Shown here piece after piece: positions 6,341-39,385 of a stretch of DNA of 64,000 nt (within the stretch, counting starts at the first letter, position 1; every line of letters starts with the position of its first letter). A program made the position numbers and the translations under genes. Source of the stretch: a virus. The stretch spans positions 1 to 64,000 of IMG/VR virus record IMGVR_UViG_3300036770_008715. The stretch is one strand, 5' to 3'. The notes beneath the pieces were generated by a model that did not search any database, had not been told where the DNA came from, and saw only the letters and a list, made by a program, of their open reading frames with translations.

Positions 6341-7226
6341 TACGATCACCCTCTTTTACGATTTGATGCCAAAATTTCTTAACTCCAAACTCAGTCTCTT
6401 GTTTCATTTCTTTTCCAATATCAAATGCCTCTGGTTCAGGTTTCTTTCTATTATACTTCCTTTTAGGAGCAATAACAACTATTTCTTTTGGTTTATCTGC
6501 TAACGATACGTTTCCTGCTATCAAAAGCATCACAGCAAGTGGATCAAATACAACAATAAGCAAAATGATGACAAAGCGCACAGCTTTGTCAAAATGATCT
6601 TGTGCTCCGTCTTCATAGATTAACTCCGCAATATATTTTAGTGGGCCTACTTCGACTTCTTGTTTTTTCACAGTAACATTAAGTTTGTTGACGTTTTCTC
6701 TGAGTGCCAATACCTCAGTTTCAACAGACTGACGTCTATCTTCAAGTTCATTTCGCTGCTTATCAATATTGCCTTTTTGCTCAAGACCTTTTGTTAAGCT
6801 GCCGAGTTCAACATAACGAGCATAGGTTTCATCTAGGGCAAGTATCTGTTTGTCAATTGAAGCAATCAATCTTTGTTTGGCTTCGATCTTCTGAGTCAAC
6901 GTTTGTATTTGATAATCAACATCAGCACCAGAAGTTAGTGAGTGTTCAAGATGCGCTCTAGATAGAAACCCAAACACGCCCATCGATGTAATGAACATCA
7001 ATAGCAAGATGGCAATCATCAGATATGACTTGAGGAATCTGGGTGCAATATCCCAGTTTCTGTATAGCCAAGATACAGCTACAAGTTTGGCAAACTCAAG
7101 TGTTGATCCCATGGCAGCAACAGCAAACGTTGCTCCTGGGAATATCGCTATAAGTCCAATGATTGAATAGTAAGCAGCAGCGATTGATAATAGAAATCCT
7201 GATAGGAATGCTAGGGCTGTTATCAT
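6333..7226 (-). CDS. Membrane protein with central coiled coil (about 4 TM segments)
   Basis: Three N-terminal hydrophobic helices, a heptad-rich middle, and EVGPLKYIA followed by TM ...VFDPLAV. Confidence 0.7.
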   Translation of the reverse strand: MITALAFLSGFLLSIAAAYYSIIGLIAIFPGATFAVAAMGSTLEFAKLVAVSWLYRNWDIAPRFLKSYLMIAILLLMFITSMGVFGFLSRAHLEHSLTSGADVDYQIQTLTQKIEAKQRLIASIDKQILALDETYARYVELGSLTKGLEQKGNIDKQRNELEDRRQSVETEVLALRENVNKLNVTVKKQEVEVGPLKYIAELIYEDGAQDHFDKAVRFVIILLIVVFDPLAVMLLIAGNVSLADKPKEIVVIAPKRKYNRKKPEPEAFDIGKEMKQETEFGVKKFWHQIVKEGDRNE

Positions 7227-9754
7227 CCAAAGAAGTCTTCGAGGGTTGATATCTTTTCTGTTTTCCAGTTAATGCAGTCTAGAACAATTTTGAGAGGTTC
7301 AATGAATGACTTCTCGAATTGCGTATCATAGTCAATGTATTTATCAATACCAAATTCTGGCGGCACAATGCTTATGAATGCAATGGTATTATTCATGAAT
7401 GGATTTGGTTGCTTGAGATAACAGAACTTGATCTTTTCGCCCTCTTTGATTGCTTCATATCTTTTAGTCAGTCCATGTTTCTTCAGTTGATCATTATAGA
7501 TGATTGAGCCCTTAACATGAATTGGTGTTGCTGATTTAAACATGTTAACTTTATCGCGATATTTCGTAAGGCCGTTCACGCTGCGAGGAAAGGAGATCTG
7601 ATCAATCTTGAGTGTTCGGAATTCCTCGCGGAACTTCGCAATATACTCAATCATGTCATCTTCAGTTTTCTCCATGATAACCTTTAGTGCTTCTTTAATC
7701 TTTACTCGGCAGGCTGATGGTGTCGAAGACTTAACAGCTTCGAGGCCCATGATCTTCAACTTTGGCTCTTTGTATTCAACACCCTCGTTGTTCCAGACAT
7801 TGAGGATGTATCGCTTCTTGGCAGTCCAGATTGCTTTGTCTGCAATAGCTTCTCGCTTCATAATCATCTTCTGATCATAAGCATTAACATATTCGGCAAG
7901 TTGCCCATAGAAATCATCAATTGTTTTTTGCACTTTATCTTCACAGGCTTTGTCTAGCCAACGAACAATATCGATAGTAGGTTTCTTTTGCATTCCAACT
8001 TTCTTAACAAGTGGACCAAGATGTAGATAGATTGAATCTGTATCTGATGCAATCACATAATCCTCACCCTTAGTCTTGAGCAAATCATTGAGCCACTCAT
8101 TCATTTTATTTTCAATCCAGCGAATCGAAAGCTGGCCAGAAAGAGTGATTGCTTCGGCGATTCGAATATCAAAGAAGCGAAAGTATTTGTTACCTAGCGC
8201 ACCATAAGCTGAGTTCAGTGATACTTTCTTGGCCAGCTGTAGATTATTATATCTTGATATTTCTTTCTCAAGATATTCTTCTTGGTTAGGATCACCTTTG
8301 GCTTTCTCAAGTTTCTTTTTGGCATCGTTGGCCATCTTCTTGTACTTTGATCGATCAACATACATGTCTGACATAATTTCGCAGAGCAGGCCACGTTTGT
8401 CTGTTCGAAAGAACTGGCCGTTGGGAGTCATCGTGGCATTTTGTTGCTTGAGGAAATCTAAATTCGTCTTTTGATTGAGTAGATTCTCAACCCCAGGCTT
8501 ACCAACCTTATACATTTCTTGGCTGTAATTATCTGGCTCAATCAATGTTTCCATTGAAATGTTATACTGCATAATTAGGTGAGGATACAGCGAGTTCAAG
8601 TCAAATGAAACAACCCAATCGTGCATACCAACTTGTGGATCTTTAACATATGCGCCTTCATATGCTGCAAACTTCTCGCCATTCTTCATCTGTGGAATAA
8701 CGATCTTATTTTTCTTTAGGTGGTTGTAGATGATAGTATCCCACATTCGAACCTGAGTGAACACATCGTCAATATTAACTTTGTTATCGTATGCCAGAGT
8801 CAATGCAAGTTCAATCAATCGACCCTTGTCATTCAGACGTTCAACAAGCTCAACGTCTTTGATGTTATACTCAAGAAACTTTTGGAAGTCTTTGAGATAC
8901 AACTGATGAAGAGTTTCATGCTCAGAGTAATCTAGTTTCTTCTCGCCTATTTCATAGTTGGCTACATGATCAAGTCGATATGACTCTTGTGGTGTGTATG
9001 AATACTTCTTGTAAAGATCAAGATAATCAAGAGTGGCAATGCCAATGATGTCGTATGTGAACTGCTCACGATTCATGATGACTGCTTTGCGCTCATGAAT
9101 GCGTTTCCAAGGTGACAGCTTTCGCGCTTCGTCTTCACCAAACACTGACTTGATTCGATTAACAAGATATGGAATATCAAAGAAGCCTACGTTCCAACCA
9201 CTAATTACATCAGGCCAGATTATTGTCCATTCTTCAATGAACTTACGCAGCAATGTTATCTCATCATCGCATTTGATATACTTCACATCTTCGCGGTCAG
9301 TTTTAAAACTGCCAATACCCATTGAGATAATTTTATCTTTGACCTTCATCGTGACTGCGATGACGGGTTGATCAGCAGTTCTTGGGTCTGGGAATCCATT
9401 TTCTGATGTAACCTCGATGTCAAGATAGACAATCCGAATATTGTCAATATCCCACATCACATCATCAGGGAACTCGTCTGAGATAAATGCATACTCATAA
9501 CGATTATTGCCATAGATTGGGAAAGTTTCAACATCCTTGTATTTCTCAAGAAACTCGCGGCAATCTGGTATAGTGCCAGGCTGAATAGGCTCCACAGATT
9601 GCCCATGGAGCGTTTTGTATTCAGACTTGTTTTTAGAAGGGACGTAGAAAGTTGGAAAATACTCTATCTTACGAGCGATACGCTTGCCGTTTTCGACGCC
9701 TCGATAGAGTATGTTTTTTCCTTGGAGCGCAACATTAGTATAGAATGAACTCAT
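7223..9754 (-). CDS. 43: Family B DNA polymerase gp43
   Basis: Exo DIE, SFDLNSLYP, KVSLNSAYG, SDTDS and KKRY motifs. Uninterrupted. C-terminal peptide STLEDFFG. Confidence 0.98.
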   Translation of the reverse strand: MSSFYTNVALQGKNILYRGVENGKRIARKIEYFPTFYVPSKNKSEYKTLHGQSVEPIQPGTIPDCREFLEKYKDVETFPIYGNNRYEYAFISDEFPDDVMWDIDNIRIVYLDIEVTSENGFPDPRTADQPVIAVTMKVKDKIISMGIGSFKTDREDVKYIKCDDEITLLRKFIEEWTIIWPDVISGWNVGFFDIPYLVNRIKSVFGEDEARKLSPWKRIHERKAVIMNREQFTYDIIGIATLDYLDLYKKYSYTPQESYRLDHVANYEIGEKKLDYSEHETLHQLYLKDFQKFLEYNIKDVELVERLNDKGRLIELALTLAYDNKVNIDDVFTQVRMWDTIIYNHLKKNKIVIPQMKNGEKFAAYEGAYVKDPQVGMHDWVVSFDLNSLYPHLIMQYNISMETLIEPDNYSQEMYKVGKPGVENLLNQKTNLDFLKQQNATMTPNGQFFRTDKRGLLCEIMSDMYVDRSKYKKMANDAKKKLEKAKGDPNQEEYLEKEISRYNNLQLAKKVSLNSAYGALGNKYFRFFDIRIAEAITLSGQLSIRWIENKMNEWLNDLLKTKGEDYVIASDTDSIYLHLGPLVKKVGMQKKPTIDIVRWLDKACEDKVQKTIDDFYGQLAEYVNAYDQKMIMKREAIADKAIWTAKKRYILNVWNNEGVEYKEPKLKIMGLEAVKSSTPSACRVKIKEALKVIMEKTEDDMIEYIAKFREEFRTLKIDQISFPRSVNGLTKYRDKVNMFKSATPIHVKGSIIYNDQLKKHGLTKRYEAIKEGEKIKFCYLKQPNPFMNNTIAFISIVPPEFGIDKYIDYDTQFEKSFIEPLKIVLDCINWKTEKISTLEDFFG

Positions 9755-10044
9755 GTAATCAACAGTTTCTTGCTAGGAGTGATAATGCCGCCGAAGATTT
9801 TATTATACTGGTTCTTCAGCTCATTGTCAACTTCTTTTGCAACAATTACATGTTCAGTTTTGAATTCAAACTCGCGGCTCTCGCAATAGGGAAGATAGGG
9901 AAGAAATCCCATACCAACCTCATTGTTAGGCGTCCTCTGCATCATAATCACGATTGGGTTTTTAACACGAATGCTTGTTGGCAATTCTTGCAAGACTTCA
10001 GCCAAGAGTTCTTCGCCAGAAACCATCTTTAATACTTTAATCAT
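9751..10044 (-). CDS. Conserved hypothetical (Sm-like fold protein usually upstream of gene 43)
   Basis: KVLKMVSGEELLAE...VKNP...Y..IFGGIITP pattern; synteny. Confidence 0.65.
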   Translation of the reverse strand: MIKVLKMVSGEELLAEVLQELPTSIRVKNPIVIMMQRTPNNEVGMGFLPYLPYCESREFEFKTEHVIVAKEVDNELKNQYNKIFGGIITPSKKLLIT

Positions 10045-12670: not shown

Positions 12671-12851
12671 TCATGAAATCTCCGTTTGAGAAATCAAACC
12701 ACTCGCTGATCTCATTCATCACATAATATGCAATCTGTTCTTTGATCTGCTCGGGAGTTGGGTTGTCTACGTGTTTGTGCGCACGATTCCAACCATAAGC
12801 CACGCCCTCATCAACACAGCGTTCAATAATTTTGTACATTCTGGGTTTCAT
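12663..12851 (-). CDS. Conserved hypothetical phage protein
   Basis: GVAYGWNRAHKH..P...I...VMNEISEWFDF; SD GAGGTG. Confidence 0.7.
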   Translation of the reverse strand: MKPRMYKIIERCVDEGVAYGWNRAHKHVDNPTPEQIKEQIAYYVMNEISEWFDFSNGDFMNE

Positions 12852-12859
12852 AAATCACC

Positions 12860-14026: not shown

Positions 14027-14039
14027 ACTAAACCCTCAT

Positions 14040-14975: not shown

Positions 14976-14985
14976 AATGAACCCT

Positions 14986-15636: not shown

Positions 15637-15639
15637 ATA

Positions 15640-16860: not shown

Positions 16861-16869
16861 AAAAACTCC

Positions 16870-17874: not shown

Positions 17875-17990
17875 TTTTTTACCTTCTTAGGCTTTTTATT
17901 GCCAAATATTTTTTCCCAGTTTTCCCTATATTTTTGGCTAGAGGGTTTGGTTTTAATAAGATCTCCTGTTATATCATTTTTCGAAGACAT
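17871..17990 (-). CDS. Small conserved-looking phage protein (39 aa)
   Basis: Not in the track. MSSKNDITGDLIKTKPSSQKYRENWEKIFGNKKPKKVKK; ATGA overlap with gmd. Confidence 0.55.
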   Translation of the reverse strand: MSSKNDITGDLIKTKPSSQKYRENWEKIFGNKKPKKVKK

Positions 17991-18636
17991 CGATGTTCCT
18001 CCATCTCCCTGGTTCGAAATAATTGAACCAAACATAAACTTCTGGTAAATACATGGTATGTACTTGTTGTGTTATTGCTGTAATCAACATACCATCGCCA
18101 CAATCATACCTTGGGAATCTAAATCCTAGATCAAGAACCTTACCCTTGACTAAAATTTGTTCAAGCCCAACCTTCATCGGCTGCATAAAAATTGGATGGG
18201 CAATCAAAGTATTTGTGTGGTGATGGCGGTTGGTTCCTTTCACGCTTTCTGGAATCTCATCGCCTCGTTTCATTGAAGTGATGATAACATTAATTTCATA
18301 TGGGAAATTATATATCACATTTCGCAGTTTGTCAAAAAAATCTGGCTCGTATGCATCATCATCATTCAAAAAACAATACATATCTTCTGGTTCTAAAGGA
18401 TAATTATCTAGGAACCAATTGAGAGATGTATTAGACCTATCCCAAAATAGTTCCCTATCGTTATGACAAATATGGTGTTTAATCCAATCTTCTTGTGGTG
18501 GTACGAACTCATGGGATTTCGGATTATCGTCATCAGTCACAATATGCCAAAAAACATTGTGCCCCTTTAATGCATTATAAAGTTTTGGTACATTATCAAA
18601 CCTCGCTAATGGACAAACAACATGGAATTTTTGCAC
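17974..18636 (-). CDS. Putative GT-A glycosyltransferase
   Basis: VVCPLAR, WHIVTD, CFLNDDD motif. Confidence 0.6.
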   Translation of the reverse strand: MQKFHVVCPLARFDNVPKLYNALKGHNVFWHIVTDDDNPKSHEFVPPQEDWIKHHICHNDRELFWDRSNTSLNWFLDNYPLEPEDMYCFLNDDDAYEPDFFDKLRNVIYNFPYEINVIITSMKRGDEIPESVKGTNRHHHTNTLIAHPIFMQPMKVGLEQILVKGKVLDLGFRFPRYDCGDGMLITAITQQVHTMYLPEVYVWFNYFEPGRWRNIDVFEK

Positions 18637-18638
18637 AG

Positions 18639-19262
18639 CTATTCTCCTGTTACAATGTTCATGTTTCCAGCTACAGAAATTCTAGTTTCATCTGAAGTGA
18701 AAAATGGATAGACACAATGAGTCATATTAGCAGGAAACATAATTATTCTCCCTTCGTCTCTTTTGTTTACCCAAATTAGATGGGAGCTCAAGCCCATAGT
18801 GTGAGTTGAATATGTGAGTTCAAATGCTGCAACTCTTGGAGTTTGCGGTTTCTCATGAAAATCTACCTTCAGTTCTTCATCAATATCATATGGAATATTA
18901 ACCCAAATAACAAAAGATGCTTTCCCACCATGAATGTGGTTTGGATTGTACTCACCTTTCTTTTGGTAGTTGATCCAAATGTCATTGATTACTGGATACT
19001 GATTATCTCTTAACTCGTGGTCTGGATCTACTGAAAATGTATTGCGCCAGGATCGATACATCTCTAAAAGAAAATTGCTTAGTTCTAGATCGCTATGGTG
19101 ATCGTATTGATATTCTTCTCGAATGTATGAAATTAGATTGTGATTGTATGTATCTTTCTTAGCAACACCAGAAAGGCAATCAGATTTTAATCTTTCAAAG
19201 ATGTGATTGGGAATTCTGCTTTCCAGAACTCCAGGGTTGTATATTGGTAGTATATTGAACAT
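18639..19262 (-). CDS. 2OG-Fe(II) oxygenase (phage small type)
   Basis: WINYQKKGEYNPNHIH, FPANMTHCVYPF, RISVAGN. Start ATG 19262 after SD GGAGG. Confidence 0.85.
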   Translation of the reverse strand: MFNILPIYNPGVLESRIPNHIFERLKSDCLSGVAKKDTYNHNLISYIREEYQYDHHSDLELSNFLLEMYRSWRNTFSVDPDHELRDNQYPVINDIWINYQKKGEYNPNHIHGGKASFVIWVNIPYDIDEELKVDFHEKPQTPRVAAFELTYSTHTMGLSSHLIWVNKRDEGRIIMFPANMTHCVYPFFTSDETRISVAGNMNIVTGE

Positions 19263-19275
19263 CACACCTCCATAT

Positions 19276-19352
19276 TGGCGCACCCGAGAGGATTCGAACC
19301 TCTGACCAATAGCTTAGAAGGCTACTGCTCTATCCTACTGAGCTACGAGTGC
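19276..19352 (-). tRNA. tRNA-Arg (TCT)
   Basis: GCACTCGTAGCTCAGTAGGATAGAGCAGTAGCCTTCTAAGCTATTGGTCAGAGGTTCGAATCCTCTCGGGTGCGCCA. Confidence 0.95.
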
Positions 19353-19354
19353 AA

Positions 19355-19561
19355 TTAATCATAATTTCCATGAAAATTATAATCTTCTTCGATCGGAGAA
19401 TACCAGAAACTTTCTAGCTCTTCCGCTGCGACTTGAGGTGTGAAGTTGTTTTTGTAGCAGGCAAATAACAAACTTGAATCCACAGCACTCAGCGCATCGA
19501 TTTGTAGAATTTTCATGACTTCTTTTTTATATAGGTCAAACGGATCAATGTACTGAATCAT
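19355..19561 (-). CDS. Hypothetical protein
   Basis: Co-oriented ORF with SD AGGAG. Confidence 0.6.
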   Translation of the reverse strand: MIQYIDPFDLYKKEVMKILQIDALSAVDSSLLFACYKNNFTPQVAAEELESFWYSPIEEDYNFHGNYD

Positions 19562-19569
19562 AGAATCTC

Positions 19570-20109
19570 CTAGAATTTAGGTGCGTCCTTGAATAGAATT
19601 CCAGCAGAGTCTTTGGCTGACAGACTATTAGGTTGCATTGGCCATTGTATGTTTAGATCTGGATCATCCCAGCGTATACATACATTATGCTTTGGGCTGT
19701 ACTTCCTGGTACATTTGTAAACTAGATCAGCTGTTTCACTCAGCACCAAGAATCCATGGGCAAATCCTGGCGGTATCCAGAATATGCGTTTGTTATGTTC
19801 TGACAATATTGTGGCAAACCACTTACCATAGCTGCTTGAGTTCTTGCGTAAGTCTACAGCCACATCAAACACTTCGCCGCTGATTACTCGAACCAGTTTG
19901 CCTTGGGTGTATCGAGTCTGATAGTGTAGACCACGGAGAACTCCGCGCTGAGATCGACTTTGATTATCTTGTACAAATACTTTACTGATGCCTACAGCGG
20001 CAAACAGCTCACGATTCCAAGACTCAAAGAAATATCCTCGGTCGTCGCCAAAGACCTTGGGCTCCAGCAGCACTAGATCTTTGACGCCATTTGTGTCAAG
20101 GAAGTTCAT
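19570..20109 (-). CDS. rmlC: dTDP-4-dehydrorhamnose 3,5-epimerase
   Basis: FGDDRGYF, QDNQSRS..GVLRGLHYQ, DVAVDLR, IPPGFAHGF. Confidence 0.96.
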   Translation of the reverse strand: MNFLDTNGVKDLVLLEPKVFGDDRGYFFESWNRELFAAVGISKVFVQDNQSRSQRGVLRGLHYQTRYTQGKLVRVISGEVFDVAVDLRKNSSSYGKWFATILSEHNKRIFWIPPGFAHGFLVLSETADLVYKCTRKYSPKHNVCIRWDDPDLNIQWPMQPNSLSAKDSAGILFKDAPKF

Positions 20110-20309
20110 GACTTCACGCTGGTAACATCGCGGTGGTCAAGGATCACTCGGTCGCGCATGTCGCCGAATACTTCAATCGGTTGATCGAGCACGATATGGT
20201 GAGAAACTCCGCCACCATACTTGACGCGTGACAGCTCAACCTTACCGACGATAGGAAACGTTTCGAGATACGTTCCCGTGATAGTCAGACCTTCAAGATT
20301 CCAGTTCAT
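20106..20309 (-). CDS. Hypothetical protein
   Basis: Likely start MNWNLEG; SRVKYGG motif. Confidence 0.6.
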   Translation of the reverse strand: MNWNLEGLTITGTYLETFPIVGKVELSRVKYGGGVSHHIVLDQPIEVFGDMRDRVILDHRDVTSVKS

Positions 20310-21337: not shown

Positions 21338-21880
21338 TTAGTCCCAAAGATTGGAATAGTATTTGCCGAACAAATCAAATCCTTCTTGCATTCTCTCGCG
21401 ATGTTTCAGATATCCTTCATAATCAAAAACATGAGTGTCTTTTGGGCCACGCTTCAACTCAAACAACTCAGCATCCTTCTCTGGCACTTCGTTGCCATTT
21501 TTGTCGACAGGAACATGAATGACATCATGCTCGCCCGAGTGAAACTGGTCTTCCCAATCGCCGTTGTTTTCAACAAGCTGGGAGAATGACCAGATCATTT
21601 TGTCGAGAGTATCCATCCACTGCTGATGACCAGCATCCCATGCCGTAGCATCTTCTTCAGCATAAAAAGGAAATGCTAACTGAATAGAGTCTGAGGTTTG
21701 TCGGAAAGCAGGCATATCACTAGGTGCGCCGTGTGTTGTAGCTTTCAACTGCTTGAGCATCGGATAGATGATAAATGCCAATGTAGAATCCATTGACCAA
21801 GTATCCCACTTATCAATGCGAACTCTGATCTTGCGTTCCTTGTCAGGATTCTTAGGATAACTACCGATATAGGCTTTCAT
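21338..21880 (-). CDS. Conserved hypothetical phage protein
   Basis: IDKWDTWSMDSTLA.II.PMLKQLK...HGAP...LFGKYY..LWD. Confidence 0.75.
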   Translation of the reverse strand: MKAYIGSYPKNPDKERKIRVRIDKWDTWSMDSTLAFIIYPMLKQLKATTHGAPSDMPAFRQTSDSIQLAFPFYAEEDATAWDAGHQQWMDTLDKMIWSFSQLVENNGDWEDQFHSGEHDVIHVPVDKNGNEVPEKDAELFELKRGPKDTHVFDYEGYLKHRERMQEGFDLFGKYYSNLWD

Positions 21881-22346
21881 ACACTTGCTCCATAGTATCT
21901 TTCAGATTTTGATGAAGGATTGCCTTTCCGCCAGCTTCTTCAAATTCTATTACGTTTCTATATGTGTCGTCAATTAAAAGATGATGTTCATGGGCAAAGT
22001 CTTTTTTGTATCTTTTACCAGGAACAATGTTAACTGGTATATGGATGTTATTGTTTCGAAGCCAGCTAGTTTTATGTTCAGTGATTTCATCATAGAAAAG
22101 TTCGCCGCCGCTTGATGAAAGAATCTCTATTGGAATTCTGAAAGAACTGAGAAACTGATACAGTTCTTTGCCTTCATGGAACCACTCTAGAGTTTCAAAG
22201 TGGCGGCCCTTAACAAACATTTCCCAGAACTCTGACTTTGTAAACGTTCCTTGAACTTGCCCTGGAGGAACACCATGCAACTCAATGAAACGTTTATCAA
22301 AGTCAGCTATCACACCATCCATATCAAGATATATTTTCTTCACCAT
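21861..22346 (-). CDS. HAD-family 5'(3')-deoxyribonucleotidase
   Basis: IYLDMDGVIADF motif I; LLIDDT motif IV. Confidence 0.85.
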   Translation of the reverse strand: MVKKIYLDMDGVIADFDKRFIELHGVPPGQVQGTFTKSEFWEMFVKGRHFETLEWFHEGKELYQFLSSFRIPIEILSSSGGELFYDEITEHKTSWLRNNNIHIPVNIVPGKRYKKDFAHEHHLLIDDTYRNVIEFEEAGGKAILHQNLKDTMEQVYESLYR

Positions 22347-22620
22347 ACCGTTCTCTGTATTTTACATCAGACCTTTGTTCTTGGATAGTCTTTTCGTTAA
22401 AGAATTTTCTTGGATTACCACACATATGACAAGAACAAAGTTTACCATGATTAGTCATCATACCAGTAGCCTTTCTTATCCAGTCATATCTCTCACTTAA
22501 TTGTAACTCATTCGATAGTCTGTTAGCAACTTTTTTCCACTTATTTTTACTGCGTATTTTTTGTTGAAATCTCCGTTGACGTTTCAGTTTGGGATTGATC
22601 AGTTCTTGCTCTTCGATCAT
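22324..22620 (-). CDS. Hypothetical basic protein with a CxCxxC motif
   Basis: CSCHMCGNPRK...TIQEQR. Confidence 0.65.
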   Translation of the reverse strand: MIEEQELINPKLKRQRRFQQKIRSKNKWKKVANRLSNELQLSERYDWIRKATGMMTNHGKLCSCHMCGNPRKFFNEKTIQEQRSDVKYRERYGEENIS

Positions 22621-23092
22621 TTAACCACCTTTCATTTGAAATTACAGTAAGACCCCCCTTGAGCAGTAAGGATATCCCATCGTTCTTCCGATAGTCAAGA
22701 TCATAGTATACTGCATCAATTCCACTTTGCAGGATTGCCTTAGCGCACTCAATGCATGGAGAGTGAGTTAGAAACATTGTGGCTCCTTCTGTTGAATCGT
22801 GACTTCTTGATACCTTTAAGATTGCGTTCATCTCAGCATGAATGACTTCTGGTTTGGTAACTAATGTTTCAGGCCATTCAATATAACTCCTGGAATCCAG
22901 ATCTACCTCAGTTCCTGCAGGTATCAGAGTTTCGCAGTCGTTGTCAAACCCAGAAGGAGTGCCGTTGAAACCATAAGATAGGATGCGGTGATCTTTTACA
23001 ATCACCGCACCTACCTGGAGCCTTCTGGCTCTTGAGAGTTTTGCAACTCTCCTGGCTACATCAAAATAAAAATCGACAAATCGATTATTCAC
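22547..23092 (-). CDS. cd: dCMP deaminase
   Basis: VGAVIVKD, GFNGTPSG, HAEMNA, SPCIECAK zinc motifs. Confidence 0.93.
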   Translation of the reverse strand: MNNRFVDFYFDVARRVAKLSRARRLQVGAVIVKDHRILSYGFNGTPSGFDNDCETLIPAGTEVDLDSRSYIEWPETLVTKPEVIHAEMNAILKVSRSHDSTEGATMFLTHSPCIECAKAILQSGIDAVYYDLDYRKNDGISLLLKGGLTVISNERWLNDRRARTDQSQTETSTEISTKNTQ

Positions 23093-23549
23093 GTGATAGT
23101 AACTTTGGCGTTTGGATTGGGATCACTCGTGGCTTGTGCTGCTCTGGGATAACGTTCTCAAGTTGAATTGAGAGGACGCCATCTTCCAATTCAGCACCAT
23201 GCACCACCACACTATCGGCTAGGATAAACGATCGAGTAAATGATCGAGCAGCAATACCTTGCATTAGGTATCGGCGCTTCTCATTCTCTTCTTTTTTCCC
23301 AAAGACCTTTAGTGAGTTCTTCTCAACTTTGATTTCAATTTCTTCCTTGCGGAATCCTGATACTGCAAGCTCAATGATATACTTGTTTTCATCTTCTTCA
23401 TCACGAATGATGTTCACAGGAGGATAAGAAGATGTTTGGACTTGGGCTGTTTCAGCAGCTCGATGTAGGTGATCAATTAGGCTGTCATAGCCTAGTGTGC
23501 TTGCAAAGAAACGGTCGTAATTGAAAAGTGATGCGGCTCTGTTCGTCAT
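23085..23549 (-). CDS. hsp20: Small heat-shock protein Hsp20 (IbpA-like)
   Basis: YPPVNI, IELAVSGF, GIAARSFTRSF, AELEDGVL, IPEQHKPRVIPI. Confidence 0.95.
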   Translation of the reverse strand: MTNRAASLFNYDRFFASTLGYDSLIDHLHRAAETAQVQTSSYPPVNIIRDEEDENKYIIELAVSGFRKEEIEIKVEKNSLKVFGKKEENEKRRYLMQGIAARSFTRSFILADSVVVHGAELEDGVLSIQLENVIPEQHKPRVIPIQTPKLLSRE

Positions 23550-25337: not shown

Positions 25338-25994
25338 TCACCCCACATCATCAAAAAGTTCAAGTATATTGATTGCGTTCTTCACGTCTTCTCTGTTCTT
25401 TTTCTCCTGTACATTAGTGGTTGCATTTTTCAGATTAACGACGGAATTACCATATTGCCTTCTTAGCATTTTGATTATATGGTTTTCAGTCTTCCTCAAT
25501 ACTTCTTCGAAACTTCCTGGTTGAATTCGTTCAATCTGTTCAAAACTCTTAGTCATCCAATCTGGAAATAGATAAGCAGAAACTTTTAGGTGTTGAAAAT
25601 TTAAACCGAATAGTTCTTGATATAATCTGATATGATTATAATGCCCCAGTTTTTGATGTTCATCTCTGATACCAACCAGATCTCTACAATTTCTAGCAAT
25701 TCTATCAGAAATTTCTCGAGAAGATCCAACATAAATCCATTTTGGAATTTCAATGCCATTGGTATTCATTAAGATATAAATGCCAGGGCGATTGGCAGTT
25801 TTAAACCCAAACTGTTCTGCATGAATATTAAAAGTAGATCTCAAATATTCACTATTTACACTACCATCTTCTCTTCTTATATTTGGCAACGACATTAAGT
25901 TTGAGTCGTTCGAGAGAAACTCCCAACTCAAACTCAGGAGCAAGTCTTGCATATTATACTTTAGGATTGGTTCACCGCACAAATTAATATTCAT
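25338..25994 (-). CDS. GIY-YIG-family endonuclease-like protein
   Basis: PGIYIL-x12-YVGSS..I..R, with a later conserved E (TENHII) and N. AT-rich and inserted between dsbA and 44. Confidence 0.65.
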   Translation of the reverse strand: MNINLCGEPILKYNMQDLLLSLSWEFLSNDSNLMSLPNIRREDGSVNSEYLRSTFNIHAEQFGFKTANRPGIYILMNTNGIEIPKWIYVGSSREISDRIARNCRDLVGIRDEHQKLGHYNHIRLYQELFGLNFQHLKVSAYLFPDWMTKSFEQIERIQPGSFEEVLRKTENHIIKMLRRQYGNSVVNLKNATTNVQEKKNREDVKNAINILELFDDVG

Positions 25995-26353: not shown

Positions 26354-27031
26354 TCAACCAAAAGTGGATTGCAAAGATTCAATAGCAATGTAATAAACAA
26401 CTTTCTTGTTCTTATTAGTGAACTTAGCAAGACCTTTCTTAGCAATATCAATTTGATAGTCGCCATCAAGCATCTTGAAGTATTCTACCTTCATCACAAT
26501 TTCAAAAGTAGCACCGTCTCCATCACCAATAGTTGTGCTAGAAACGTCAGAGGAGTCATCTTTAATATCAGTTGATACAAACTGAATTTTCTTACCATCA
26601 CTTCTGAATACAAAGTTTGGTGAACCAGAAATTCCTGCGCTCTTACGTTGCCAGTCAAGATCTTTCTGCGTTAGTTCGAATGAATAGTCAGGATGATCAA
26701 CGGCAAGAGATTTAGTAGCAGGAATAGTTGTAATCAACGTTGGCGAACAATAGCGAATGTAATCAGAACGCTTCTTATCGCTTGATACAAATACAACTCG
26801 ATCTTCTTGGAAATCTAGCTCACAATCACCATACAATGAATGCTTGGCAAGAAACTTGTTTAGATCATAGATGGCAAAGTCTTTTGGGAATTTCTCCTCG
26901 ACCGTTGCCATACCAAGAACAGTCTTGATATTAGACACAGTACCAACTGAAGAACCAGCCTTTACGCTGATGCCCTGATTGATTGTGGAGAAGTTCTTGA
27001 GAATCTCAAGAGTGTTAGCACTTAGTTTCAT
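26354..27031 (-). CDS. 45: Sliding clamp gp45
   Basis: MKLSANTLEILKNFSTINQ, FAIYDLNKFL, YYIAIE. Confidence 0.96.
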   Translation of the reverse strand: MKLSANTLEILKNFSTINQGISVKAGSSVGTVSNIKTVLGMATVEEKFPKDFAIYDLNKFLAKHSLYGDCELDFQEDRVVFVSSDKKRSDYIRYCSPTLITTIPATKSLAVDHPDYSFELTQKDLDWQRKSAGISGSPNFVFRSDGKKIQFVSTDIKDDSSDVSSTTIGDGDGATFEIVMKVEYFKMLDGDYQIDIAKKGLAKFTNKNKKVVYYIAIESLQSTFG

Positions 27032-27672
27032 GATAGCCTCACTTTGTGGTCAAGTTCATAATTGAAGGATTCATACATTTCAAAGACATCGTCTTTAAGC
27101 ACATCTAAAGTATAATCGTTTTTTATTGTAAAGTCAACTAAATCCATAAATTGTACCCAAGAATATTCACTAGGATGAACTTCTGGATATTTTTCAGCCA
27201 TTACAACTGATGCATTTTGCTTTCTGGCAACATCAAACCATTCAGGTGAATCTCCTCTGGAAACCCAGACGATGAATCCGCCCAACTCTTTTATTCTTAC
27301 CATTTCATTAGGAAAGCGCACATCAGCAATGACATAGTTCTCTTCTGGATTGACTCGTTTCATCAATGAGAGAATCCACAAGTCTGGATGGAAAATATCA
27401 CGACCAGCCTCAGTACCAATCCATTGTAATGCTTGGCGCGGAGTGAAAGAGTAGCCAAACTTCTCACTCCACCAAGCGTCAGGCTTTTCGCGCCACTCTC
27501 GAGATTCTTTGGTTTCACCCTCAAGCATCTCGCGGTTCCATCCGAAGATCACTGCCGCAGCATCCTTTACACCAGCCGCAAAACTTTCTTTCCGAAAGTT
27601 ATAGTTGCCACTAAGGATGTCTGCGACAGTGCCCTTTCCCGAACCAATTAATCCAACAAGACCAATAATCAT
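27028..27672 (-). CDS. 1: Deoxynucleoside monophosphate kinase (T4 gp1-like)
   Basis: GLIGSGKGT, TPRQALQWIGTE, IADVRFPNE, H.SE. Confidence 0.92.
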   Translation of the reverse strand: MIIGLVGLIGSGKGTVADILSGNYNFRKESFAAGVKDAAAVIFGWNREMLEGETKESREWREKPDAWWSEKFGYSFTPRQALQWIGTEAGRDIFHPDLWILSLMKRVNPEENYVIADVRFPNEMVRIKELGGFIVWVSRGDSPEWFDVARKQNASVVMAEKYPEVHPSEYSWVQFMDLVDFTIKNDYTLDVLKDDVFEMYESFNYELDHKVRLS

Positions 27673-27686
27673 AATATAATCTCCTG

Positions 27687-28484
27687 TTAGAGAGAACCAA
27701 TATGCCCCGCTACTGCTTGTAGATCTCCATTAAATGCATAGGTTCCAATATGGTGAGTCTTCATCCAAGGACAGAGCCAGATCTGACCACCAATGTTACG
27801 CCACCACTGACAGAACATATAATCTTCTGATAGGTATCGATCTGACTTACCATGATCAATTACAGTATCAAAGTATGCATGGATATACCGCGAACCATCA
27901 AAGTTATCTTGGCCAACGTGATCAGGCTTATATCGAAGCTCTGGATACGCAGCCTCAAACTTCTCAAACACATGGCGCTTGATCATCATGTAACCAGTAC
28001 CAATCTCAAGAACTTCTACTGGCTCGGCAACTGAGAATTTATCAGTGCCTGGAACTGGGTTGAACACGTAATCACCAGTTACTTTGTCAAGCTCACCTGG
28101 CTCGATGTTTGGATTATTAAGAATTGCTTGCTTGACTGAAGACCACTTGATTGACTTCTTGGGATATGGTCCGCCGATGATGTCGCGATCAAGTGCTAGA
28201 AGTGCAATAACATCACGCGGATCAAAGTGAATATCTGAGTCAATGAACAACATGTGCGTAAACCCAGAACGCAGAAATTCATCTACCAGATAGTTTCGAG
28301 CCCGAGTGATTAGCGACTCATTAAAGATGAATGAAAATCGAACTTCGATTCCATAATTAGAACACAAACCCTGAAGGTCTAGTGCTGATTTGCAATACAT
28401 ACCAAAACATTGTCCACCATACATCGGAGTGGCAACAAAGAGTTTATGTTTACGCAAATCGTCGAGGGAAATTTCTAGATTCAT
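27687..28484 (-). CDS. GT-A fold glycosyltransferase-like protein
   Basis: FVATPMYGG, ESLITRARN, LFIDSDI, GTGYMMI, LSEDY.FC. Confidence 0.75.
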   Translation of the reverse strand: MNLEISLDDLRKHKLFVATPMYGGQCFGMYCKSALDLQGLCSNYGIEVRFSFIFNESLITRARNYLVDEFLRSGFTHMLFIDSDIHFDPRDVIALLALDRDIIGGPYPKKSIKWSSVKQAILNNPNIEPGELDKVTGDYVFNPVPGTDKFSVAEPVEVLEIGTGYMMIKRHVFEKFEAAYPELRYKPDHVGQDNFDGSRYIHAYFDTVIDHGKSDRYLSEDYMFCQWWRNIGGQIWLCPWMKTHHIGTYAFNGDLQAVAGHIGSL

Positions 28485-28519
28485 AATTAGTCACTCCAAG
28501 TAAAAATAAAGTACATATA

Positions 28520-29320
28520 TCAACCAAAAAAATCTTCTAGAGTTGCACCAACTTCAACTTTTGGTCTAGTATCGCGCAATCTGAGTTCAGCTCTGTTCTT
28601 AGACTCACGGATATACATGGTACAAAGATCAGGATACTGTTCCGCTAACAACTTAGCGTTTTTGGTTATATTCTCTTCCTTACGAGCATCAGTGCCTTGC
28701 ATTCCACCTGGCTCGTTATAGTATTTAGTCTTAATTGTAACATCATCCAATCGAATAACTGCACCATCTTTCAAATAATGTTGCAATGTTCTTTGGTAAT
28801 CTTCCTTCTCGTCAATAGTACAAACTAGATCTGAGTCGTGTCTATTAATGACTCCCCATAAAGCACCAACGCAAAAATACAATCCTACTGAAACTCTGTT
28901 TTTCATAAACATAGGATTGTTGACTGCATATACACCAAATAGATATGCATTATGCTTTATACATTCGTTGAATCCGCGAAAGATAACTTGTTCCTCAAGG
29001 TTCTCCACTGGAACTACAGTTTTATCATCAACCTTGCGTAAGACATCATATACATCATCATCAAAACAAACTAAGTTTGTTCCTACTGGATAATACTTTT
29101 GGATCACTCTACGTTGAGCTTGTAGAGTAATTTCTCCAACAACAATATTTTTATATGGAGTATTTTTTAGTTCTTTGGCATAGTCATCATACTCTTGTTC
29201 ATTAGCAACAAAAACTGTTACCCTCTCAGGATCAATGTTATGCTTACTCAACACAGCAAGAGTTTTTTCACGAACTCCTGATGCTCTACGATAGCTAGGA
29301 ATTGCTATTCTATAATCCAT
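28520..29320 (-). CDS. TET/JBP-associated glycosyltransferase (GREB1/TAGT-like)
   Basis: IAIPSYRR, VCFDDD, KEDYQRT, PGGMQ; directly downstream of the TET/JBP gene. C-terminus ATLEDFFG. Confidence 0.8.
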   Translation of the reverse strand: MDYRIAIPSYRRASGVREKTLAVLSKHNIDPERVTVFVANEQEYDDYAKELKNTPYKNIVVGEITLQAQRRVIQKYYPVGTNLVCFDDDVYDVLRKVDDKTVVPVENLEEQVIFRGFNECIKHNAYLFGVYAVNNPMFMKNRVSVGLYFCVGALWGVINRHDSDLVCTIDEKEDYQRTLQHYLKDGAVIRLDDVTIKTKYYNEPGGMQGTDARKEENITKNAKLLAEQYPDLCTMYIRESKNRAELRLRDTRPKVEVGATLEDFFG

Positions 29321-29331
29321 AGTAACCTCTA

Positions 29332-30681
29332 TTATTCAAATAGATCTTCAAGCGTAGAAATTTTTTCTTTTTCTTGTGGGTGATACTTATTCAACATTTC
29401 TTCGCCGCCAGTATCACGAAGAAAATCATACCACTCTTGCTGATTCCACATATTCTCAGATACGCCATTCCAAAGTGGGCGCCATAGTGGATGTTCTTTG
29501 TTCTTGCGTCGAGCTTCTACATACTGGAAACGGATATCTTCATATTCTTTGCTGCCAAGTTCAAGCATCTTCTCACGAAAATAACAAACAAGGCTGATGC
29601 GTTCTGATCCTTCTTCAGCAACAATCGGAGTGTTGCCATGAATAATTTCATGGTTGTTTACCAGTAGCAAATCACCTGGCCTAACATTAACAGCAATACG
29701 ATACTCAGGAAAAACTAAATAGCCGCCAGTATACTTGCCATCGTTCGATAGTACAAGAAGATTACTTAGGCCATCAGAAAAATCACCAGCGTCTCGATGG
29801 CATGCAGTTTGGAAATTTTTATTTACTGTGATCGTTGTGAAAACAGTCCCTGGAACAAGGAACGATGCATCAATACGATCTGCTGCAGATCTTTGGGCTT
29901 GCCAACGTAATGGAAGTAATTCTCGAAATCCTCGGTTGAGCGACTGAAGGAATGGAAATGCCATCTTGAATTTGTCGAAGTTGTTTTGCGTATAGGCTGT
30001 TGCTCGTCCATATGGAATCCTCGGGTATCGATCGAACCAGCCAGCAATTCCTGAAAAGACTTGGTTGGCATAGGTCGTATCTGAGATATATTTCTTTTCT
30101 ACATTTAGAGCCGATGCCTTTCTATCAGCAGGGCTCATCTTTAGAACAGACTCCAACCAATTCTCAAATACAAATTCGTCTTTCTTAATTTTTGCAGATA
30201 ACCAAACTAATCCTCTTGGTGATTCAGTGTTAGAAAACTTCTCACGAAGCAAGGCAACTTCATCAGCAATATCAAATTCAATAGTTGATTCAGGTATTTT
30301 GGCAAAAAGATCAAGCACCTGAAGTTGGAACTCATTGACCCAATCGCGATTAAGACATTTCTCGCCTTTGGGTCCAGCGGCCAACCCTCGATTTTGCGAA
30401 GGTGCAGCTGCATCGCGCAACCCTAGATATGCTTGCTTCTGTTCCTTGTTAGTAAAAAAATTCTTTCGGAATTTAAATGCGATTGTCGCTTCGTTAGCGC
30501 CCGAAGGGCAATCTTCACACTCAGTTTCACAAGTTGCTTTTGTTACAGCATCACAAGGAGGAATCTTGTAACAATCAGTATCTTCTTCAATCAAAATATC
30601 ATAATGTGATTCGTCAACAAATTGACCGAGAAGATGCTCGCAATCATATTTAGTTTTAGCGACGATTACATTCACACTCAT
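29332..30681 (-). CDS. TET/JBP-family 2OG-Fe(II) nucleic-acid dioxygenase
   Basis: FTTITVNKNFQTACHRDAGD (HxD), GGYLVFPEY, GDLLL..HEIIHGNT, ERISLVCYFRE. C-terminus STLEDLFE. Confidence 0.85.
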   Translation of the reverse strand: MSVNVIVAKTKYDCEHLLGQFVDESHYDILIEEDTDCYKIPPCDAVTKATCETECEDCPSGANEATIAFKFRKNFFTNKEQKQAYLGLRDAAAPSQNRGLAAGPKGEKCLNRDWVNEFQLQVLDLFAKIPESTIEFDIADEVALLREKFSNTESPRGLVWLSAKIKKDEFVFENWLESVLKMSPADRKASALNVEKKYISDTTYANQVFSGIAGWFDRYPRIPYGRATAYTQNNFDKFKMAFPFLQSLNRGFRELLPLRWQAQRSAADRIDASFLVPGTVFTTITVNKNFQTACHRDAGDFSDGLSNLLVLSNDGKYTGGYLVFPEYRIAVNVRPGDLLLVNNHEIIHGNTPIVAEEGSERISLVCYFREKMLELGSKEYEDIRFQYVEARRKNKEHPLWRPLWNGVSENMWNQQEWYDFLRDTGGEEMLNKYHPQEKEKISTLEDLFE

Positions 30682-30710
30682 AACAAAAACTCTGGGAGGG
30701 TGGTATTAGT

Positions 30711-30739
30711 ATTATATATGCAACTTGCATATGAAGCAA
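30711..30739 (-). promoter_or_regulatory. Sigma70-type promoter with palindromic operator
   Basis: TTGCTT-N17-TATAAT. Perfect palindrome ATATGCAA-C-TTGCATAT at 30716-30732. Confidence 0.8.
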
Positions 30740-30740
30740 A

Positions 30741-30764
30741 TAAAAAGGGGGACTTACGTCCCCC
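30741..30764 (-). terminator. Rho-independent terminator
   Basis: GGGGGAC-GTAA-GTCCCCC followed by TTTTTA. Confidence 0.88.
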
Positions 30765-38614: not shown

Positions 38615-38829
38615 GCAGCTTCCCTCTTAATTTCCCAAGCCCAGTTTACCGCGCACCAATCAACAATGCATCGATCTTTCGAAAGTTTAGCAATGTTCTC
38701 TCCACGTTTAATCATTCGCATACACCAATCATCCCAATACTCTTTAATAATTTCTTCCTCGCTCAGAGTTACTTCTACAGATTGGCCAAACGCATCATCA
38801 GCTGGTATGATATACCTATAATACCTCAT
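38611..38829 (-). CDS. Hypothetical protein
   Basis: EEEII.EYW..WC..M...CI.DW..VNWAWE; coupled start/stop overlaps. Confidence 0.7.
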   Translation of the reverse strand: MRYYRYIIPADDAFGQSVEVTLSEEEIIKEYWDDWCMRMIKRGENIAKLSKDRCIVDWCAVNWAWEIKREAA

Positions 38830-39332
38830 TCTGATTCCCCTTTCAACTTTTTTGTTTTGACAGAAGTTTCATAGTTCTCAATAAACGCTGAAATATTATC
38901 ATACAGTTCAAACTGTCTGTTAACACCATCAGCATCTAGTTGATTGAATTCATCAATAACACCAGACATCTCTGCTGACTTGTACTTGACATAGAGTTGT
39001 TTCTTCTCGCGTTGTATCCGCCTCAAGAATGCATAATATACTATTTGAGTGAAATAAGCAAATGGATTACTGGATTTTGTTGGGTCGAAGTTGTCAGCAT
39101 AGAGCACACAGTTTTCAATAGCATCGGAAATCATTTCATCACGAAAAGTATAAGAGATAAAGTTGGGCTTATGTGATAGGTTCTCAGCTATCATCATGAA
39201 ACACTTCCCAACATACTCAGGAATCCGAGGCTTCTGTTTGTTGGCTTCTTTAGCTTCCTTGATCTTATCCTTGTATGCAATCATTTCTTTCAGGAACATT
39301 GAATTGTCAATATAATGCGTTCTTTTCTTCAT
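38826..39332 (-). CDS. 55: Late-transcription sigma factor gp55
   Basis: HYIDN..FL, NFISYTFRDEMISDAIEN, NPFAYFTQI.YYAFLRRI. Confidence 0.96.
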   Translation of the reverse strand: MKKRTHYIDNSMFLKEMIAYKDKIKEAKEANKQKPRIPEYVGKCFMMIAENLSHKPNFISYTFRDEMISDAIENCVLYADNFDPTKSSNPFAYFTQIVYYAFLRRIQREKKQLYVKYKSAEMSGVIDEFNQLDADGVNRQFELYDNISAFIENYETSVKTKKLKGESE

Positions 39333-39385
39333 AAATATTTGCCTTTTTTCAAAAAGATAGTATAATCACTGTGTGGTCTTTTAAG

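Follow-up and report, generated by a model that had tools for sequence, protein, structure and literature searches.

A polymerase-type C-terminal tail shared by TET and TAGT enzymes of a T4-like phage suggests tethering of DNA hypermodification to the gp45 sliding clamp

A TET-TAGT operon ending in the sliding clamp gene

We analysed a window of 64,000 nucleotides (positions 1-64,000) from the IMG/VR virus record IMGVR_UViG_3300036770_008715, which belongs to a T4-like phage, spans 140,073 bp in whole and is 78% complete. Five minus-strand genes follow one another in the order TET, TAGT, a GT-A-fold protein, dNMP kinase and gp45, with successive intergenic gaps of 11 (TET stop to TAGT start), 35, 14 and −4 nt. 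This order and the domain assignments bear out the initial annotation. The gene upstream of TET encodes an HTH_39 protein and ends in a terminator-like hairpin (30764-30747), and a promoter-like TTGCTT-17-TATAAT element lies just upstream of TET (30739-30711). Both are consensus matches only, and the region that they form (30711..30764, minus strand) is the probable start of the transcription unit.

The first gene (29332..30681, minus strand) encodes a 449-aa protein of the TET/JBP family of 2OG/Fe(II) DNA 5-methylpyrimidine dioxygenases. Its residues 243-370 match Pfam Tet_JBP PF12851 (E=5e-22; 78.2 bits against a cut-off of 34.9), preceded by an N-terminal extension of ~240 residues. The iron triad HxD...H (H295, D297, H348) and the 2OG-binding R361 are invariant among 50 orthologues. 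The AF2 model (pLDDT 85.7) matched NgTet1 best in Foldseek (4LT5; E=6e-10, TM by target 0.51), with TET2, CcTet and CMD1 among the other best fold matches. The protein is probably an enzyme that oxidises a 5-methylpyrimidine in DNA, and probably a thymine dioxygenase. Over the catalytic core it shares 48% identity with the ParB-linked enzyme of pelagiphage HTVC112P, which is a hint only for clade placement. The second gene (28520..29320, minus strand; phrog_842) encodes a 266-aa TET-associated glycosyltransferase (TAGT) of the GT-A type, which matches PF20691 (E=8e-9; 36.1 bits against a cut-off of 27.5) and carries an invariant DDD motif (D87-D89).

The remaining genes of the operon encode a second GT-A-fold glycosyltransferase (27687..28484, minus strand; phrog_1574), a T4 gp1-like dNMP kinase (27028..27672, minus strand; Pfam DNMK; phrog_139, E=3e-49) and the gp45 sliding clamp (26354..27031, minus strand; phrog_223, E=3e-57; gp45-slide_C). 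The AF2 model of the second GT-A protein (pLDDT 80.5) gave STIV A197, Mnn9, LH3 and ColGalT1 as its best Foldseek matches. The PDB matches of gp45 were T4 gp45 (1CZD, 4e-16) and RB69 gp45 (1B77/1B8H), and we propose this clamp as a docking platform. The kinase probably serves ordinary nucleotide metabolism. The initial annotation placed these genes in one operon headed by TET and TAGT. Those two share the C-terminal tail described below; since the second GT-A protein and the kinase have no such tail, and the former is also found in phages without TET, the operon is at most a candidate for a single functional system, and a DNA-modification role of the second GT-A protein and the membership of the kinase are only putative.

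A C-terminal tail shared by gp43, TET and TAGT

Outside this operon, the minus-strand frame at 7223..9772 encodes the family-B DNA polymerase gp43 (Pfam DNA_pol_B and exonuclease domain; an open frame whose start codon is not fixed). Reading the C-termini again from the ORFs confirmed that gp43 ends in ...EKISTLEDFFG, TET in ...EKISTLEDLFE and TAGT in ...VGATLEDFFG. The polymerase tail TLEDFFG (7226-7246, minus strand), read from the frame, served as the reference clamp-binding tail. TET agrees with it at 9 of the 11 final residues (EKISTLED.F.), and its last seven residues, T443-E449 (TLEDLFE; 29335..29355, minus strand), form a candidate gp45-binding epitope on the basis of motif conservation. 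TAGT is identical to gp43 over all 7 final residues (28523..28543, minus strand). No other protein of the 140-kb record ends in TLED[FL]F. When stop-to-stop frames of ≥40 aa were scanned for L[DES][DES][FL][FL] followed by 0-3 residues at the C-terminus, the same three proteins were the only hits among 620 ORFs of the window and 1334 of the record, which extends the claimed uniqueness of the tail beyond the window. The three genes encode the TLED tail with different synonymous codons at nearly every position, and the DNA downstream of it is unrelated among them.

In T4 and RB69, gp45 is bound by C-terminal epitopes of gp43, gp55 and gp33, which combine hydrophobic and acidic residues, follow divergent linkers and are interchangeable from one protein to another (PMC2988020). 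T4 gp43 ends in SLDFLFG and T4 gp55 in SLDFLYEAND. The tails described here resemble the T4 and RB69 epitopes in their position at the extreme C-terminus, their hydrophobic/acidic frame [ST]-L-acidic-x-hydrophobic-F-G, their divergent flexible linker and their portability. They differ in their carriers, which are the polymerase and late-transcription factors in T4 and RB69 and DNA base-modifying enzymes, with predicted gp45 binding, in this phage. Unlike its T4 counterpart, gp55 of this phage does not have the epitope and so provides no second internal positive control.

We surveyed the tail in 80 related IMG/VR loci, using non-redundant TETs and, for comparison, unrelated ORFs of ≥80 aa. A strict form of the motif was found on 56 of 61 TETs, all 10 gp43s and all 4 TAGTs, and on none of 1428 unrelated ORFs. 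Under a loose form, all 61 TET orthologues, 10/10 gp43s and 4/4 locus TAGTs carried it, compared with 2% of unrelated ORFs. The tail conservation called for by the initial annotation was thus seen for TET, and 114 of 120 database TAGT homologues (cluster representatives) also have the motif. The other locus genes were without it (0/32 second GT-A proteins, 0/24 gp45, 0/15 HTH and 0/8 DsbA). Within the TET tail, position L444 is Leu in 48 and F448 is Phe in 43 of 50 orthologues. The preceding linker (residues 436-442) is highly variable, with an entropy of 2.2-3.3 bits ahead of the motif, and comprises 25-41 residues; the last block of the AF2 model (441-449) has a mean pLDDT of 66.

Beside TET, relatives encode three more tailed enzyme families: GT-B glycosyltransferases (9/9), amino-acid:DNA transferases (AADTs; 25/36) and GNAT acetyltransferases (19/27). 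In AADTs and GNATs the tail is less consistent, at about 70%, and we count this against the clamp reading. The slot beside the constant tailed TET holds TAGT, GT-B, or AADT with GNAT, which suggests that the last step of base chemistry diversifies fast from a shared 5-hydroxymethyluracil (5hmU) intermediate. All T4-like carriers of TET or TAGT have the tail, and the distant TET of the T4-like phage Melnitz ends in ...NLNDFLGE. The tail is missing from the TET/TAGT homologues of HTVC112P, P12024L, Donny (both TET and TAGT), Altadena and Lilmac1015, from S-CBWM1 TET and from actinophage TAGT homologues. Searches of four of these genomes (HTVC112P, P12024L, Donny and S-CBWM1) found no gp43 or gp45. 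By sequence comparison, the distribution of the tail among TET/TAGT homologues follows that of gp43 and gp45. The initial annotation had also proposed a test of co-variation between the TET tail and that of gp43, and this was not significant (observed 22.1, shuffled 21.65 ± 0.57; p=0.22; 20 pairs); the test is uninformative because the gp43 motif is nearly invariant in the lineage.

Clamp tethering, its substrate and its partner

Taken at the peptide level, we consider it probable, at roughly 0.72, that the tails of TET and TAGT are copies of the gp43 epitope and act as gp45-binding epitopes that tether post-replicative hypermodification to the clamp. This tether, put forward in the initial annotation, is supported by comparison: the conservation of the tail, the variable linker, the codon usage, the gp45-less controls and the three further tailed families all point the same way. 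For gp45 binding, substrate, sugar and timing we infer the following course. Each epitope would be carried on a flexible linker, through which TET and TAGT would dock onto gp45 trimers placed by the gp44/62 loader on replicating phage DNA, and the enzymes would slide with these clamps or concentrate on them. Modification would then take place on the clamp, directly after the replication fork has passed: TET would convert thymine in duplex DNA to 5hmU, and TAGT would glycosylate 5hmU to a base-J-like product. The outcome would be phage DNA hypermodified after replication, with no need for modified dNTPs in the pool. For this lineage, gp45 may act in DNA retention or as an activator, as a ParB homologue does for related phage T-dioxygenases.

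The initial annotation left the substrate open between thymine and 5mC. Substrate choice in the TET family is unreadable from sequence, and the genomic context makes thymine, converted to 5hmU and then to glycosyl-5hmU, the most likely candidate. It is favoured because no C5-MTase or ThyA was found and because the nearest TET orthologues feed AADT/kinase modules of thymidine hypermodification. The C5-MTase family PF00145, already not visible in the window, had no match in the record, nor in six relatives, of which four are complete deposited genomes and two are IMG/VR genomes that are 96-98% complete. ThyA-family genes were likewise absent from the record and these two IMG/VR relatives, and ThyX from the record. 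These nearest orthologues, at 69-71% identity, stand first in GATase-GNAT-AADT-P-loop-kinase modules, and linkage to AADT, P-loop kinase and GATase extends over orthologues 57-71% identical. This phage has no AADT and TAGT takes its place; the types of cassette are intermingled over the TET tree. In the literature, phage 5mYOXs that lack a C5-MT neighbour are assigned to the T-dioxygenases (PMC13229309), for which clades C1/C2 have been published and 5mYOX89, 97 and 176 are the characterised enzymes.

A clamp tether could also hold with a different substrate, namely 5mC, with a methylase of the host or a phage MTase encoded in the unsequenced 22% as its source, giving glycosyl-5hmC. With the record only 78% complete, a C5-MTase could sit in the missing part. 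The phage TET and GT pairs published for clades A and B have Gp5mC as their substrate (PMC8256090), the best structural matches of TET are 5mC dioxygenases, and Melnitz couples its tailed TET with an HhaI-type C5-MTase. We nevertheless regard this alternative as unlikely, given the lack of PF00145 matches in the record and the six relatives searched, and the wiring of the nearest TET orthologues to 5hmU-using AADT and P-loop-kinase machinery; in the literature, C5-MT co-occurs with only 6% of 5mYOX pathways.

Less probable still is selection of the tail for some other shared function, such as a different replisome or nucleoid partner, a proteolysis signal or a localisation signal. The tailless gp55 and the non-significant pairwise co-variation would be compatible with it, as would the weak score of the predicted complex. 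When TET residues 405-449 were modelled together with a gp45 trimer, the score was 0.57 against 0.00 for every control, which lends weak support to clamp binding and may reflect likeness only since the similar complex 1B8H is already solved. Of 80 solved complexes 58 came up to this mark, as did 2 of the 110 mismatched pairs, and scores ≤0.60 among them comprised just 7 of the 80 solved complexes plus both passing mismatches. Contact agreement between runs was at least 52%, and partner pLDDT at least 43. Against a different partner stand these controls, the identity of the homologous gp43 C-terminal peptide as a gp45 ligand in T4 and RB69 (1B8H; PMC2988020), the clear homology of this gp45 to their clamps, and the way the tail follows gp43 and gp45. 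An accidental resemblance, or a functionless by-product of gene-end recombination that copied DNA, is highly improbable and already contradicted: the motif is only 6-7 residues long, but it is near-universal in five enzyme families and in its strict form absent from the unrelated ORFs, is written in differing codons with unrelated flanking DNA, and is kept down to 47% protein identity.

Relation to known systems and implications

Published 5mYOX and GT pathways (PMC8256090; Pyle et al. 2024, bioRxiv 10.1101/2023.12.21.572611; PMC13229309) resemble the present one in the order Tet_JBP then TAGT and, as proposed here, in acting after replication. Like the TET described here, predicted T-dioxygenase clades have no neighbouring C5-MT, and the orthologues of this TET have GATase, P-loop kinase and AADT as linked genes. 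This TET differs from the published pathways in its N-terminal extension, its polymerase-type clamp tail and its lack of a ParB partner (PF02195 had no match in the 140-kb record). In the literature searched, and apart from a T4 α-GT/gp45 proposal, no TET/GT clamp tether has been described, in agreement with the initial annotation; in the 5mYOX papers, gp45, clamp and clamp loader appear as neighbouring genes only, and no tail is described (PMC8256090; bioRxiv 10.1101/2023.12.21.572611).

ParB-dependent T-dioxygenases (PMC13229309) offer a parallel, as TET there depends on a DNA-bound partner of the ring or clamp type, and may do so here. In that system the gene beside TET encodes the partner, a ParB-like protein, whereas we propose that the enzymes of this phage use a C-terminal peptide to reach the replicative clamp. 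The homologues found in ParB cassettes (ParB-TET-TAGT-deacetylase in actinophages, ParB-TET in HTVC112P) have no tail, unlike TET and TAGT here.

The idea that a DNA glycosyltransferase works at the sliding clamp while DNA is being replicated is shared with T4 α-GT. Its interaction with gp45 was proposed in 2004 and contested in a 2025 preprint that used C-terminal His tags and found no co-purification (bioRxiv 10.64898/2025.12.06.692756). We count this failure to reproduce the interaction against the clamp reading; however, T4 α-GT and β-GT have no gp43-like tail and, unlike what we propose for TAGT, act on hmC incorporated from a modified dNTP pool.

In eukaryotes, DNMT1 binds PCNA through a PIP-box and couples DNA methylation to replication. 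There, too, a short clamp-binding peptide brings a DNA-modifying enzyme to new DNA. DNMT1 maintains an existing mark, whereas the phage system would mask DNA de novo, and clamp, motif, chemistry and domain of life differ.

More tentatively, and at somewhat less than even odds, gp45 may be an obligatory "tool belt" throughout a large T4-like lineage, onto which the gp43 peptide recruits a swappable kit of TET, GT-A, GT-B, AADT and acetyltransferase enzymes, with gp45 and its loader replacing ParB as the activator of ParB-less T-dioxygenases. This would explain why such enzymes, often C-terminally tagged, appeared inactive when expressed alone, and it would let these phages write base-J-like and other thymine modifications selectively on their own DNA and in step with replication. 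A clamp tether, if true, would link two published puzzles, the first being the ParB-dependence of some T-dioxygenases along with the inactivity of ParB-less ones expressed alone, and the second the disputed T4 α-GT/gp45 story. C-terminal affinity tags, the standard in the field, would mask the tail motif. By hypermodifying their DNA, phages gain a major counter-defence to restriction and CRISPR nucleases, and the pathways also supply biotechnology with enzymes; it has been a puzzle how post-replicative enzymes pick phage DNA alone and modify it densely before packaging. A clamp tether, if true, would give a physical answer: the enzymes would ride clamps put by the phage loader on fresh copies.

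Polymerase-like tails at the TET-gp45 locus

The source record (140,073 bp; 78% complete according to CheckV) comes from a T4-like phage; it is labelled 'provirus' in IMG/VR but has the gene content expected for a lytic phage of the T4 type (gp43, gp45, gp44/62, RegA, gp46/47, gp55 and T4-type structural genes). On the minus strand, a Tet_JBP dioxygenase (TET, 29332-30681, 449 aa, ending ...EKISTLEDLFE) is followed by a TET-associated glycosyltransferase (TAGT, 28520-29320, 266 aa, ending ...VGATLEDFFG), a GT-A-like protein (GT-A2, 27687-28484, 265 aa), a dNMP kinase (27028-27672) and the sliding clamp gp45 (26354-27031), and then by DsbA, an unknown 218-aa ORF (u218), gp44, gp62 and RegA. The DNA polymerase gp43 (7223-9772, minus strand) ends in ...EKISTLEDFFG. 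No other ORF of at least 40 aa in the window or the whole record carries such an ending, so the three tails singled out by the initial annotation are real and unique at that scope. A megablast search with the cassette found no match among deposited phages, and phmmer matches of TET to PDB sequences were marginal (E=0.014), making a fold search necessary instead.

The gaps between TET, TAGT, GT-A2, dNMP kinase and gp45 are 11, 35, 14 and -4 nt. Upstream of TET lies a TTGCTT-17-TATAAT element, itself preceded by a hairpin resembling a terminator. This tight packing, together with the hairpin and promoter-like element, is consistent with transcription of the five genes as a single unit, as initially proposed. 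Presence in the operon alone, however, does not place the untailed GT-A2 or dNMP kinase in the modification system, and their membership is unsupported. The GT-A fold of GT-A2 is genuine and its DxD is invariant, but the fold search returned generic GT-A enzymes, and the nearest solved neighbors of GT-A2 are enzymes whose acceptors are proteins or glycans. Members of the family are also encoded by phages that have no TET, such as the Sinorhizobium phiM12 group. A role of GT-A2 as a DNA glycosyltransferase is unsupported but possible. We also considered an N-terminal clamp peptide on GT-A2, where ..LEISVExLRKxKLFVATPMYGG is conserved, and rejected it as it does not match the motif. The dNMP kinase is T4 gp1-like and probably belongs to ordinary nucleotide metabolism.

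The unknown ORF u218 (25338-25994, minus strand) ends in a loosely similar ..ILELFDDVG that falls outside the motif frame and was left out of the counts; it has no Pfam or PHROG match, and a GIY...YVG-like stretch makes it possibly a Seg-type homing endonuclease. The late sigma factor gp55 homolog (38826-39365, minus strand; phrog_234, E=2e-60) ends in ...KTKKLKGESE and lacks a clamp epitope, unlike T4 gp55 (...SLDFLYEAND). Epitope carriers in this record are the polymerase and DNA modifiers only.

Conservation of the tail and its relation to gp45

Full-length TET homologs were found in the T4-like phages DLP6, Cr30 and C48C1, each with a tail resembling that of its own gp43. We then fetched 80 IMG/VR loci with TETs 55-70% identical and counted non-redundant sequences. 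A strict motif ([STANGV]-L-x-x-hydrophobic-aromatic plus 0-2 residues) was present on 56/61 TETs, 10/10 gp43s and 4/4 TAGTs but on 0/1428 unrelated ORFs of at least 80 aa, while a looser motif matched all 61 TETs, 10 gp43s and 4 TAGTs and 2% of unrelated ORFs. None of the 32 GT-A2, 24 gp45, 15 HTH or 8 DsbA proteins in these loci carried the motif. A search of a large protein collection yielded 120 TAGT cluster representatives (46-84% identical), 114 of which end in the motif; at least two of the remaining six look truncated. The tails are therefore kept in nearly all of these TET and TAGT homologs.

Nearly all aligned TETs keep L444 and F448, whereas the seven residues preceding the motif have an entropy of 2.2-3.3 bits, and the C-terminus lies 25 to 41 residues beyond the invariant W417. 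The AF2 model of TET has a pLDDT of 85.7 overall and 66 in the last 10-residue block. In the window, gp43, TET and TAGT use different synonymous codons for the common residues and are followed by unrelated DNA, which argues for selection on the peptide rather than for recently copied DNA. The presence of the tail on TET and TAGT is real and far from random.

In T4, gp43, gp55 and gp33 carry short C-terminal epitopes of hydrophobic and acidic make-up, which follow divergent linkers, bind gp45 and are interchangeable, and RB69 gp45 has been crystallized with the last 11 polymerase residues (PMC2988020; 1B8H). T4 gp43 ends in SLDFLFG, which, like the T4 gp55 tail, shares a seven-residue frame with TLEDFFG of the window. 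Since the window's gp45 is also a clear homolog of the T4 and RB69 clamps, we read the TET and TAGT tails as putative gp45 ligands. A complex prediction of the gp45 trimer with TET residues 405-449 scored 0.57 (runs 0.58, 0.57 and 0.48), against 0.00 for the best control, with contact agreement of at least 52% and partner pLDDT of at least 43. It passed a mark reached in 58/80 solved complexes and 2/110 mismatched pairs, although at scores up to 0.60 only 7 of the 80 solved complexes, together with both mismatches, lie above that mark. Because a like complex has already been solved, the pass may reflect mere likeness, and the model lends weak support to binding of the TET tail.

The co-variation of TET and gp43 tails proposed in the initial annotation was not significant: across 20 distinct phage pairs, the score against the own gp43 tail was 22.1, compared with 21.65 +/- 0.57 after shuffling (p=0.22). 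The test is uninformative because the gp43 motif is almost invariant in this lineage. In Caulobacter phage Cr30 (loci L002, 11235-12161, and L007), the gp43 tail deviates (..ADLSSLFD) and the TAGT homolog has the same deviation (..SDLSKLF), the sole, anecdotal hint of lineage-specific co-variation; the Cr30 TET ends in ..GATLF.

TET/TAGT homologs also occur outside phages with a T4-type replisome, in pelagiphage HTVC112P, Nonlabens phage P12024L, mycobacteriophage Donny and Arthrobacter phages Altadena and Lilmac1015. The tail is absent from all of these homologs and from the S-CBWM1 TET, and neither gp43 nor gp45 was found in the four genomes searched (HTVC112P, P12024L, Donny and S-CBWM1). 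A ParB-like gene adjoins the homologs in HTVC112P and the three actinophages, in the latter with the order ParB-TET-TAGT-deacetylase; the fetched stretch of P12024L contains no ParB. In the T4-like Methylophilales phage Melnitz-3 (L090/L094), gp43, an HhaI-type C5-methyltransferase without a tail and a distant TET (25% identity) lie in a row, and this TET ends in a motif-like ...NLNDFLGE. It sits far from the main tailed clade on the TET tree, which, despite the long branch, suggests a second acquisition; Melnitz may have gained the tail independently on a 5mC-type TET.

A modular cassette and its probable substrate

In a first census, all 29 'other' ORFs matching the motif adjoined TET in relatives and fell into three families: GT-B glycosyltransferases (Glycos_transf_1; loose motif 9/9), AADT amino-acid:DNA transferases (PF18724; 25/36) and GNAT acetyltransferases (19/27). 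The cassette is modular, starting with HTH and a tailed TET, continuing with a variable slot (TAGT, or GT-B, or a GATase-(amidoligase)-GNAT-AADT-P-loop-kinase set) and ending with GT-A2, (dNMP kinase) and gp45. Five unrelated enzyme folds have in common the polymerase tail and, judged from sequence, action on DNA.

The initial annotation had left the substrate open between thymine and 5mC. Its observation that the window lacks a C5-methyltransferase (PF00145) extends to the whole 78%-complete record and six relatives, namely the complete DLP6, Cr30, C48C1 and S-CBWM1 and two nearly complete relatives (96% and 98%). ThyA-family enzymes, which could act as dUMP/dCMP hydroxymethylases or methylases, were absent from the record and from five IMG/VR relatives, a set that includes the 96%/98% pair and lies apart from the four complete deposited genomes. 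The TETs most similar to that of the window (L008 and L009; 69-71% identity) stand at the head of modules of AADT, P-loop nucleotide kinase 3 and GATase, published thymidine-hypermodification machinery acting on 5hmU in DNA (PMC13229309); in such modules, TET is the sole candidate source of 5hmU. TAGT-, GT-B- and AADT-type cassettes are interspersed on the TET tree, which argues for one common TET product. Taken together, these observations favor thymine, and conversion to 5hmU and then glycosyl-5hmU is probably the chemistry in this phage, with 5mC a possible alternative substrate.

Several other genes may bear on nucleotide and sugar supply. With neither ThyA nor ThyX in the record, dTMP must be made by the host or by enzymes encoded in the missing 22%; close to the replication genes, the minus strand encodes a dCMP deaminase (22547-23122) and a 5'-deoxyribonucleotidase-like protein (21861-22361). 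In some relatives, the P-loop kinase and GT-A2 are separated by a protein with a dATP/dGTP diphosphohydrolase N-terminal domain (PF18909; L033:11419-11802, E=1e-34), which suggests that the purine dNTP pool may be manipulated alongside thymine hypermodification. A myo-inositol-1-phosphate synthase gene, within the modification cassette or adjacent to it, lies just after TAGT in Cr30 (L002:12290-13471) and beside an untailed 433-aa AADT in an IMG/VR relative (L068:2710-3858), a hint that a DNA modification or a sugar donor may be derived from inositol. In the window, an NDP-deoxyhexose tailoring cluster (11044-20136, minus strand) comprises a GT2 (11044-11817), two sugar C-methyltransferases (12860-14035 and 15640-16869), a 4,6-dehydratase (16870-17886), a 2OG-Fe(II) oxygenase (18639-19313) and an RmlC-like 3,5-epimerase (19570-20136), none with a clamp tail. 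This cluster could supply the DNA glycosyltransferases with an unusual sugar donor, or else be used for glycans of the virion or the host.

Probable clamp tethering of DNA hypermodification

Previous descriptions of phage TET and glycosyltransferase pathways mention the clamp loader, gp45 or clamp as neighboring genes only (Burke et al. 2021; Pyle et al. 2024), and we found no report of clamp tails on TET, TAGT, AADT or GT-B in the literature on clamp binding with phage DNA modification or glycosyltransferases, in agreement with the novelty assumed initially. The gp45 binding once proposed for T4 alpha-GT could not be reproduced by the authors of a 2025 preprint (bioRxiv 10.64898/2025.12.06.692756); T4 alpha-GT, beta-GT and Dam have no gp43-like tail, so T4 is no counter-example. 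A 2026 PNAS paper showed a subset of phage T-dioxygenases to depend on a ParB-like activator, and noted that ParB-less members of clade C1 expressed alone had no detectable activity, for a reason unknown to its authors (PMC13229309). A requirement for the clamp would be one explanation for these silent enzymes.

The tail is conserved, selected as a peptide and tracks gp45, while the predicted complex is weak. Clamp-tethered, replication-coupled DNA hypermodification, as inferred in the initial annotation, is the best explanation, with a probability of about 0.72. Its parts, phage TET and glycosyltransferase hypermodification and a portable gp45-binding epitope, are known and would here be combined in a new variant, and the clamp-tether reading is directly testable.
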